A stretch of 64,000 nucleotides of DNA from a virus, in IMG/VR virus record IMGVR_UViG_3300050120_000210, positions 64,001 through 128,000 of that record, one strand, 5' to 3'. Both the position numbers and the translations under genes were made by a program. The notes beneath the pieces were generated by a model. That model did no database searches and had not been told where the DNA came from. It saw nothing but the letters and a program-made list of their open reading frames with translations. The stretch's first letter is position 1. Each line of letters starts with the position of its first letter. Shown here piece after piece: positions 61,718 to 63,105 of the stretch.

Positions 61718-61868
61718 AAAATAGGCCCACCGGGTGGGCACATGGCGTGACCGGTGGGCCGTAATGGCTTCGGACGGGCTGCCATCAACCGTTCAGGAGC
61801 CCGGCGCCGAACATCCTGACTCAGGGGTATGTCCTAAAAGGGCAGTGACCGTTCTGATCCTTACCCTA
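61718..61868 (-). ncRNA. Candidate ~150-nt structured RNA ending in a terminator
   Basis: Hairpins GGGTA/TGCCC, TCAGGA/TCCTGA, ATGGC/GCCAT; CGGGCT/AGCCCG possible pseudoknot; GGCCCACCGG/CCGGTGGGCC plus U-rich tail. Confidence 0.45.
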
Positions 61869-61874
61869 GACACG

Positions 61875-61905
61875 AAAAAGCCGCCCCGGATTTGCCGGAG
61901 CGGCT
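61875..61905 (-). terminator. Terminator of the GOLLD-like transcript
   Basis: AGCCGCTCCGG/CCGGGGCGGCT-TTTT. Confidence 0.8.
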
Positions 61906-61954: not shown

Positions 61955-63105
61955 TTAAAGCCGTGAGACTACAGGCTTAATGACTGGCCTTCCGAGATTA
62001 TAGCCCACTTGCGATGGACCTTCCCCGATCATCCACCCTCTGCTCTTGCGAGTCAAAAGGTAACCAGCCGATGCCGCCTTTTCCCTATCGAAGCCCGAAG
62101 GCATAGGCGAGTGGCTTATCTCGCGTCGTAGTGTGTCCTCGGCGGTTCCTTCTCCGTTGACCATCGCTGGCCATTCAGGGTTGCAGCCCCTACGAAAACC
62201 TTCCCACCAACGTCCGGTTGCCTTGCGAGCTTCCGACCGTCTCGGTTCCAAATCGCCACCCGAAGATGACGACCCAGCCGAGAATTAGGCATCTTGTTAC
62301 ACACTACCGGGGCAGAACTTTGCGTTTTTCTAAGACAGTTGGAATTGAACCAACGACCTCATCCTATGCAGGGATGCGCTCTACCAGAGTGAGCTATATC
62401 GCAATCCACCAAGACGTGCTGCCCCAGTTGCTTCACCAGCCTTTCAGCCGACAAAATACAACACGCCTCATCCCTTTCATCCGGCTAAGACTACTCAGGT
62501 GTCCTTTTGGACCTAGTGACGTTTTCACGCCCCAAGACCCTGAAGACTGCCACCCGCCCTAAGCTGCGAAGCCTCGGACCTGATGACTACCCGTTAACTC
62601 TCGACCATGGACGTGCTTTGCATGTCTCGGTGCAGGACGCAAACCCCGCTTGGACCGACCTGCTTTCCCCACCGGCGAACCGACAAGGGCATCGAGCCTA
62701 GTCCTATCCCCTCTCAGGGACCAAAACGCACATCGTCCGATCTATCTCCTATCCCGAAGGTAGAAGACCCTCTTTAGGAGGGTAGTTCGGGCCTCTTTGG
62801 ATGGACTACAGTTGCCTGTAGGGACGGTATGTGGACCTTCCGCCCTTATCCCACCTCGCGGCGGGTTATCCGATTATACTGGCGCCAAATCGCCAGTTCT
62901 CAACACCCGTCCTATCGGTCGAACGAACTACCCCGCACATCGACCGAAGCCGACGTGCAAAGTGATCCAGTAGGATCGAAGAGACGTTCCGCACGCCGCC
63001 CGAAGGCGACTTAACCCGACCGAAGCCGAGAGGCACGGAGTGCCGAAACTTGTGTGCTAGGAGCGGGTTTTCCCGCTCTCAGCGAAATTTTTTGGTCTGT
63101 GACCG
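61955..63105 (-). ncRNA. GOLLD-like giant ornate RNA (~1.15 kb)
   Basis: Promoter TTGACC-N17-TAGGTT; many UUCG/GNRA hairpins with minus-strand G-U pairs; segments resembling GOLLD as recalled (GUGUUGUAUU..AGCAAC..GCAGCAC, CUGCCCCGGU, UAUAAUC, UGUAGUCUCA); embedded tRNA-like domain. Confidence 0.75.
62331..62403 (-). tRNA. Degenerate tRNA-Cys(GCA)-like domain inside the GOLLD-like RNA
   Basis: Intact D arm, anticodon arm CATCC-CTGCATA-GGATG and T arm GTTGG-TTCAATT-CCAAC; weak acceptor stem, U37, no CCA. Confidence 0.7.

Follow-up and report, generated by a model that had tools for sequence, protein, structure and literature searches.

A tRNA-shaped linker module in a phage GOLLD RNA, probably retained for its elbow and anticodon arm

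Introduction

GOLLD RNAs are among the largest non-coding RNAs of bacteria and phages, and their structure has been solved as an RNA cage: cryo-electron microscopy (cryo-EM) of the env-38 and S. agalactiae GOLLDs showed self-assembly into 12-14-mers (PMC12286853, PMC12990946). The variable linker J13/15 lies inside the cage, where transfer RNAs (tRNAs) have been drawn as "covalently linked" (Kretsch et al. 2025, PMC12286853), and tRNAs or pseudo-tRNAs have been reported from this linker ever since the first description of the family (Weinberg et al. 2009, as cited in PMC6582537; PMC12286853; PMC12990946). Here we analyze a tRNA-shaped element with the nominal anticodon GCA in the linker of a GOLLD RNA from an uncultured large phage. 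The element lies in a stretch of 64,000 nucleotides (nt), hereafter the window, which covers positions 64,001 to 128,000 of the IMG/VR virus record IMGVR_UViG_3300050120_000210, a 149-kb fragment estimated to be 26% complete.

Related systems have been described in bacteria and phages. In Mycobacterium aubagnense, a tRNA-like gene predicted inside GOLLD was scored as a pseudogene, and northern blots showed no separate RNA (Behra et al. 2019, PMC6582537). Phage tRNAs evade host anticodon nucleases by changes in the anticodon loop or stem (van den Berg et al. 2023, PMC10264068). Another such case is T5 tRNA-Lys versus PARIS AriB (PMC11464382). Among the known targets of these nucleases is tRNA-Lys (PARIS AriB, PMC11464382), and further ones are given in PMC10264068.

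An earlier note on this DNA had pointed out that some GOLLD RNAs carry embedded tRNAs; this is indeed published (PMC6582537, PMC12286853, PMC12990946), and the window insert is a further example of that feature. To our knowledge, three regularities of the family as a whole are not spelled out in the papers that were searched: the truncation of the acceptor, a loop of the Lys/Asn type in which the wobble base varies, and the conservation of the loop within clades together with its switching in blocks.

Results

A tRNA-Shaped Module in the GOLLD Linker

The host RNA of the tRNA-shaped element is GOLLD. The conserved 3' domain of the family (RF02032), with the module in its variable linker, matched window positions 62469-61959 on the minus strand over all model positions (1-416), with a score of 143.4 bits and an E-value of 3e-39. 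This is 6.6 bits below the curated gathering score of 150 in Rfam, and confirmed insert-bearing relatives likewise fall under that score (141.9, 141.0, and 145.6 bits for L009, L203, and L176, the L numbers being our labels for loci). The window GOLLD resembles known members in its full-length covariance-model match, in an insert placed in the same linker (as seen in the cmscan alignment), in its phage origin (an IMG/VR virus record), and in having tRNA genes nearby, with a tRNA-Asn 1.8 kb away.

The module occupies positions 62330-62403 on the minus strand, 73 nt plus a discriminator G at 62330, as delimited by the Rfam tRNA model, ARAGORN, and an arm-by-arm parse. Inside the RF02032 match, RF00005 aligned to 62403-62330 (74 nt, 52 bits, E-value 2.8e-8 for the whole window), and ARAGORN called a tRNA-Cys(GCA) at 62329-62404. 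The earlier note had described a tRNA-shaped domain within the GOLLD RNA, with perfect D, anticodon, and T arms, an acceptor stem with a C-U mismatch and two G-U pairs, U37, and no CCA, and all of this was recovered. The D stem (GCUC/GAGC), the anticodon stem (CAUCC/GGAUG), and the T stem (GUUGG/CCAAC) form 4/4, 5/5, and 5/5 pairs, while the acceptor amounts to six of seven formal pairs (U1-A72, G2.U71, C3xU70, G4-C69, A5-U68, U6.G67, A7-U66). The discriminator G is followed by the 3' trailer AAAAACGCAA, without CCA. The nominal anticodon GCA (62367-62369, minus strand) sits in the loop CUGCAUA, with U33 and with a U rather than a purine at position 37, which makes it an outlier against the usual CUNUUAA loop of the family. 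The elbow had been thought intact: U8, A14, G18G19, A21, T54, C56, and A58 are indeed present, but it is not entirely textbook because the 15:48 Levitt pair, complementary in 30 of 34 relatives, is C:C in the window module.

The cloverleaf is of ordinary order and lies between the first GOLLD hairpin and the conserved linker motif AAAACGCAAAG, located directly 3' of the module (62318-62328, minus strand) and aligned to the Rfam consensus AAAGCAAAAGU. A motif of the AAAACGCAAAG type is present in all relatives, for which it doubled as the search anchor.

Conserved and Variable Arms of GOLLD Linker Modules

Viral contigs, metagenomes, and genome contigs were scanned with sequence patterns, which yielded 44 different inserts; most patterns required part of the D arm, and the metagenome pattern mostly retrieved ordinary tRNAs. 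A second, unbiased scan, for which the only anchors were GOLLD motifs on the downstream side of the linker, gave 42 new GOLLD linkers: 30 with a module under strict parsing, a few that failed the strict parse, two with circularly permuted tRNAs, and about seven short ones with no module. In total, about 75 GOLLD linker inserts were compared, and 15 loci were removed as false positives on inspection (L019, L020, L042, L043, L047, L049, L050, L052, L054, L211, L218, L229, L249, L273, L277). BLAST matches to GenBank phages were limited to the part with the first hairpin, the tRNA, and the linker, and came from phiCbK-type Caulobacter phages and an Erythrobacter phage. The cloverleaf parser was custom-made and is biased towards finding acceptor pairs, and an alignment-based pair counter agrees with it.

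The arms of the 30 unbiased modules differ sharply in how well they are kept. The D stem is intact in all 30, the anticodon stem and the T stem in 29 each, and the inner acceptor pairs 4:69 to 7:66 are formed in 29-30. The outer acceptor, on the other hand, is not far from chance, with pair 1:72 in 17 modules, 2:71 in 12, and 3:70 in 19; all three outer pairs are present in 4/30, a seven-pair acceptor likewise in 4/30, and CCA in 1/30. Of 294 free-standing tRNAs from the same loci, run through the same parser, 272 have all three outer pairs and at least 250 have CCA. The contrast in the outer acceptor between modules, here the pooled 44 inserts, and free-standing tRNAs is highly significant (Fisher p = 6e-27).

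The independent pair counter, applied to 34 aligned copies, found the outer acceptor to be 51% paired as compared to 36-46% in slid controls, while pairing reached 100% in the D stem, 97.6% in the anticodon stem, 94.7% in the T stem, and 89% in the inner acceptor. The covariation score of the same copies was 0.64, as compared to 0.19 for shuffles, none of 500 of which reached it, and the D, anticodon, and T stems show many compensatory double changes across relatives. Tertiary positions are also retained, with U8 in 33/34, A14 in 34/34, A21 in 33/34, T54 and A58 in 30/30, C56 kept, and 15:48 covarying.

These patterns show selection that keeps the L-shape and the architecture of the anticodon loop, but not the outer acceptor, the discriminator, or the CCA end. 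The window module, with its C3xU70 mismatch, its G2.U71 pair, and no CCA, fits the family pattern. The suggestion in the earlier note that the domain is kept as a shape is thereby upheld, and neutral decay of all arms in relatives, which it had named as a refuting outcome, is clearly not what is seen, the D, anticodon, and T stems being 95-100% paired. The comparison across homologs that it had proposed shows a conserved shape, a loop that is conserved within clades, and a predominance of NUU anticodons in the unbiased copies. Its view that the features for aminoacylation have decayed is correct in that neither the acceptor end nor CCA is maintained, but the implied recent loss is not supported: the truncated acceptor is an old, family-wide state rather than one acquired by the window copy.

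One candidate regularity was discarded. A single fixed body, with U8-A9 and a GCUC/GAGC D arm combined with any anticodon, was seen in 36/42 inserts, but the observation is circular, as the search patterns required TAGCTCA; contrary to a fixed body, the D stem covaries in the unbiased scan.

Linkers of other kinds were also recovered. In L235 and L272 (linkers of 112-114 nt), the tRNA is circularly permuted with a full acceptor of 7 base pairs (bp), the order being T arm, 3' acceptor strand, discriminator, and CCA, followed by the 5' acceptor strand, the D arm, and the anticodon arm. Short linkers of 45-70 nt without a module account for about 1 in 6 of the unbiased set (L310, L223, L227, L259, L280, L271, L004), and the module is therefore common but dispensable. 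The near-identical metagenome copies L062 and L063 differ mostly in the 3' acceptor strand of the module and in the trailer, which fits an absence of constraint on the 3' end of the acceptor.

Relation to Free-Standing Cysteine tRNAs

We compared the module body, excluding the anticodon arm and the acceptor, to modules that had been sampled without reference to the insert. The body is 74% identical to these unbiased modules as compared to 60% to 292 free-standing tRNAs (Mann-Whitney p = 2e-9), and only 57% identical to 12 tRNA-Cys; among the free-standing tRNAs, those of the Val, Lys, and Asn types come closest. All 12 distinct free-standing tRNA-Cys from related phage loci have U73, A37, U8-G9, and a full acceptor, and 11 of them have a YUGCAAA loop. 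The window module shares the GCA anticodon with these tRNAs but has G73, U8-A9, U37, and a different D arm. U73 is a major identity element for cysteinyl-tRNA synthetase in E. coli, and a purine at position 37 (R37) is found in 275 of 280 free-standing tRNAs with 7-nt loops, as opposed to the U37 of the module. The description "tRNA-Cys-like" given in the earlier note does not hold up: the "Cys" label is best regarded as nominal, and the body as that of a GOLLD linker module.

The only free-standing tRNAs of the contig are Val(GAC) and Asn(GUU), both of which have a full acceptor and an encoded CCA, while the embedded module has neither; no other tRNA-Cys was found in the 149-kb fragment. A homolog of the CCA-adding enzyme is present outside the window (a 389-amino-acid open frame, 140932-141300 of the record, with a 97-bit match to PF01743, the family of CCA-adding enzymes and poly(A) polymerases). 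No match to PF04446, which would indicate Thg1-like 5'-editing repair of the first three acceptor pairs, was found in the 149-kb fragment, weak evidence given that the fragment is 26% complete.

Behavior of the Anticodon Loop

The usual loop in the unbiased sample is C-U-N-U-U-A-A, with UUU in nine copies, GUU in seven, and CUU in three, and the wobble base is the most variable position. NUU with A37, present in 19/27 copies, is frequent but not defining; other copies depart from it too. U33 and R37 are found in 27/27. The window insert, with GCA and U37, differs in this respect from most unbiased relatives, and its loop CUGCAUA departs from the common CUGUUAA at three contiguous positions.

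In the GUU and UUU groups, the loops CUGUUAA and CUUUUAA are each constant over four different covarying anticodon stems. Between the cultivated Caulobacter phages phiCbK and Magneto, GOLLD varies at only 8 of 881 positions, five of which are contiguous at loop positions 33-37 (CGUCCUA versus CUCUUAA); the loop of BL57 is CAUCCUA, and the neighboring free-standing tRNA-Cys has the same loop in all three phages. No compensating change is seen among the other three differences between the phiCbK and Magneto GOLLDs, and any pairing partner of the loop would therefore lie outside GOLLD. The sequence of the loop seems to matter, being kept within clades and switched as a block between some close relatives.

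Two other descriptions of the loop were set aside. A simple gene conversion within the genome is an unlikely origin of the Magneto loop, as the genome of this phage has a single copy of the 8-mer CTCTTAAG (the loop and the first stem base). Loops that are hypervariable throughout and frequently aberrant are found in the pattern-selected subfamily only (8-9-nt loops in 7/34, U33 in 23/27), and this description was rejected for the family because of the invariant U33 and R37 and the dominant NUU in the unbiased sample.

Expanded loops on otherwise perfect anticodon stems were observed in the subfamily of the window, with 8 nt in L015, L023, L030, L039, L040, and L051 and 9 nt in L009. L039 and L116 are near-identical except for a loop of 8 nt in the former and 7 nt in the latter.

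Helices Flanking the Module

The earlier note had also proposed that TTGCG and CGCAA, flanking the domain, pair and lock it into the host RNA. The two segments are complementary: UUGCG (62400-62404, minus strand) overlaps acceptor positions 1-4, and CGCAA (62324-62320) can take the place of the 3' acceptor strand as its pairing partner. When the module is folded by itself with RNAfold, the acceptor stem is not formed, and with the flanks included the minimum-energy fold uses UUGCG/CGCAA within a helix of the GGGGCAG/CUGCCCC type. As a family trait, however, the lock was rejected, since pairing at this site is not conserved: a helix of at least 5 bp is found in 26% of the 34 relatives versus 14% with shuffled flanks, and one of at least 4 bp in 44% versus 46%. 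CGCAAAG is simply a conserved GOLLD motif.

The clamp is formed by another helix. Its 5' strand, GGGGCAG (62419-62425, minus strand), belongs to the internal loop in the first GOLLD hairpin and pairs in the RNAfold structure with the 3' strand CUGCCCC (62309-62315, minus strand). This linker-closing helix, of 5-13 bp, recurs at the corresponding site of 34/34 relatives and shows covariation, and it joins the internal loop of the first hairpin to the strand just after the AAAGCAAAAGU-type motif. In the window copy, 7 nt connect the module on its 5' side, and on its 3' side it is held by 15 nt together with the linker-closing helix.

Transcript Layout and Related Loci

Upstream of the Rfam match, a presumed variable 5' domain of the same transcript extends over 62470-63104 (minus strand), as delimited by the match and by a promoter-like motif, TTGACC (63141-63136) and TAGGTT (63118-63113) spaced by 17 nt; the motif was recognized by eye and was not flagged by a consensus scan. 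A predicted intrinsic terminator that would close the transcript is located at 61879-61905 (minus strand), with an 11-bp stem containing nine G-C pairs followed by a T run. The transcript is apparently longer than that of typical GOLLDs, about 1.2 kb. Another terminator-like hairpin is located at 61725-61739 on the minus strand, about 140 nt downstream of the terminator.

Full GOLLDs that are unannotated in GenBank were found in phiCbK, Magneto, and BL57 (L007, L008, and L010; about 1130-2010; 165-170 bits) and in the Erythrobacter phage vB_EliS-L02 (L009, 1526-2016, 142 bits). The linker modules of the phiCbK-type and Erythrobacter phages are annotated as ordinary tRNA-Gly or tRNA-Lys, and in the Caulobacter phages a permuted transfer-messenger RNA (tmRNA) lies just upstream of GOLLD. 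Free-standing tRNAs with a CUA anticodon (amber-suppressor type, called "Pyl" by ARAGORN) are present in several large-phage loci, such as L005 (10923-10997), which additionally has a tmRNA.

Discussion

A Module Probably Acting Through Its Elbow and Anticodon Arm

We consider it probable that the element is an inherited, tRNA-shaped module of the GOLLD linker, rather than a working or excisable cysteine tRNA, and that it is retained and functions by way of its elbow and anticodon arm. The module sits between the 5' and 3' domains of GOLLD, with its ends held by the linker and by the covarying helix, and each cage particle would carry 12-14 tethered tRNA look-alikes, with the linker in the interior (location from PMC12286853). 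We infer that the module most likely stays covalently attached and works through the elbow and the anticodon arm, because selection maintains the shape and the loop and not the chargeable end.

Several observations weigh against this interpretation. In the window copy, six of the seven acceptor pairs are formally present and the Rfam tRNA score is normal, and, given the CCA-adding enzyme homolog, its processing and tailing may be possible. Inserts with a full acceptor and CCA (L046, L129, L183, L291), although a minority, may be genuine tRNAs. The GCA/U37 loop and C15:C48 are outliers in the family and could reflect relaxed constraint in the window copy. Phages, viral and genome contigs, and the metagenome scan yielded no close relative of the window GOLLD, the best being about 72-76% identical over about 200 nt, so that selection in the lineage of the window can be read only from the perfect stems and from an anticodon stem that is unique and yet complementary. 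No anticodon nuclease is known to be linked to GOLLD.

As to a specific role, the likeliest, which we offer only tentatively, is that the module might lure a host factor that recognizes the anticodon arms of tRNAs, such as an anticodon nuclease of a defense system, and so serve as bait or decoy; this would fit the behavior of the loop. The decoy or docking role suggested by the earlier note, for anticodon nucleases or elbow-binding factors, is thus a reasonable proposal. It is somewhat more doubtful whether the cages as a whole could be anti-defense devices, in which 12-14 tethered anticodon arms would act as bait or uncleavable competitors for tRNA-targeting nucleases or for another anticodon reader. 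If they were, the loop would be kept within clades and switched as a block as hosts change, as between phiCbK and Magneto, and the GCA/U37 loop of the window would represent one such switch.

Alternative Explanations

A purely structural part in the GOLLD particle, as a spacer, a folding nucleus, an RNA-RNA contact within the cage, or a handle for ribosome docking, would need no outside reader of the anticodon. The shape is conserved across relatives, most unbiased copies share U35-U36-A37-A38, which could be engaged in tertiary contacts, and a ribosome pull-down of GOLLD is mentioned in PMC12286853. Yet about 7/42 linkers have no module, and neither has that of env-38, which still forms cages (PMC12286853), so that the module is dispensable for assembly; moreover, the 5-nt loop swap between phiCbK and Magneto is uncompensated within GOLLD, which makes an internal partner unlikely. 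We regard this explanation as unlikely.

Still less likely, in our view, is that the module is a processing signal, at which tRNA-maturing enzymes nick GOLLD between its 5' and 3' domains to yield a two-piece RNA, comparable to mitochondrial punctuation and to MALAT1/mascRNA. The module lies exactly between two structural domains (PMC12286853), but cages assemble in vitro from single-chain transcripts (same source). The permuted tRNAs with full acceptor and CCA in L235 and L272 would suit cutting better than decoding. RNase P and RNase Z require a stacked acceptor/T helix, and the outer three pairs are near chance in modules of ordinary order, with a weak acceptor in the window copy.

Storage of a working tRNA-Cys in GOLLD, with excision by RNase P and RNase Z, CCA tailing, and decoding of UGC/UGU after an "inhibited storage" and a timed release, has been voiced as an idea (PMC12990946) and seems to us improbable for the window insert. 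It would agree with the ARAGORN and Rfam calls, the six acceptor pairs, U33, the CCA-adding enzyme homolog in a fragment with no other tRNA-Cys, and the few GOLLD inserts that have a full acceptor and CCA. It is difficult to reconcile with G73, where 12/12 free-standing phage tRNA-Cys have U73, with U37, C3xU70, C15:C48, and a body only 57% identical to tRNA-Cys, with the missing CCA when both free-standing tRNAs of the phage encode it, with an acceptor stem that is absent from the minimum-energy fold and loses its outer pairs family-wide, and with the M. aubagnense copy, which gave no excised product (PMC6582537).

That the insert is a dead relic, a tRNA gene recombined into GOLLD within a tRNA array and then left to drift, is highly improbable: GOLLD genes are situated in tRNA arrays and the window copy is off-consensus at U37, G73, C15:C48, and 3:70, but none of the 14 base pairs in its D, anticodon, and T stems is broken, its anticodon stem CAUCC/GGAUG is fully complementary although no other family member has it, the module is at the same place in most unbiased GOLLDs, and the near-complete pairing and many double changes of these stems across relatives already contradict drift.

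The retained module that we favor offers a testable handle on GOLLD, a phage linker module apparently selected for tRNA shape and loop sequence and not for a chargeable end. The GOLLDs of phiCbK and Magneto, about 880 nt long and differing almost only in a 5-nt loop, form a natural allele pair with a tractable host, which could reveal what the module, and hence GOLLD, does.

Comparison With Known Systems

The pseudo-tRNA of M. aubagnense is similar in that it gave no separate product, which matches the reading of a module kept within the large RNA, and it differs in its host clade and in its nominal anticodon; a single copy was studied there, without an analysis of the arms across the family. 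Nuclease-evading phage tRNAs are, like the module, tRNA-shaped, with a fast-changing and functionally relevant anticodon arm and with Lys-type loops prominent among them. They are, however, free and chargeable and replace cleaved host tRNAs, whereas the GOLLD module has no chargeable end and would be tethered in a cage-forming RNA, and it could therefore act only by binding or competing. Other tRNA-like domains reside in larger RNAs and engage the tRNA-binding machinery, such as that of tmRNA, the 3' tRNA-like structures of plant viruses, and the mascRNA of MALAT1. In these domains it is the acceptor/T half that is retained, and they are either charged or cleaved by RNase P. The GOLLD module has kept the complementary half, the elbow and the anticodon arm, and has lost the acceptor end.

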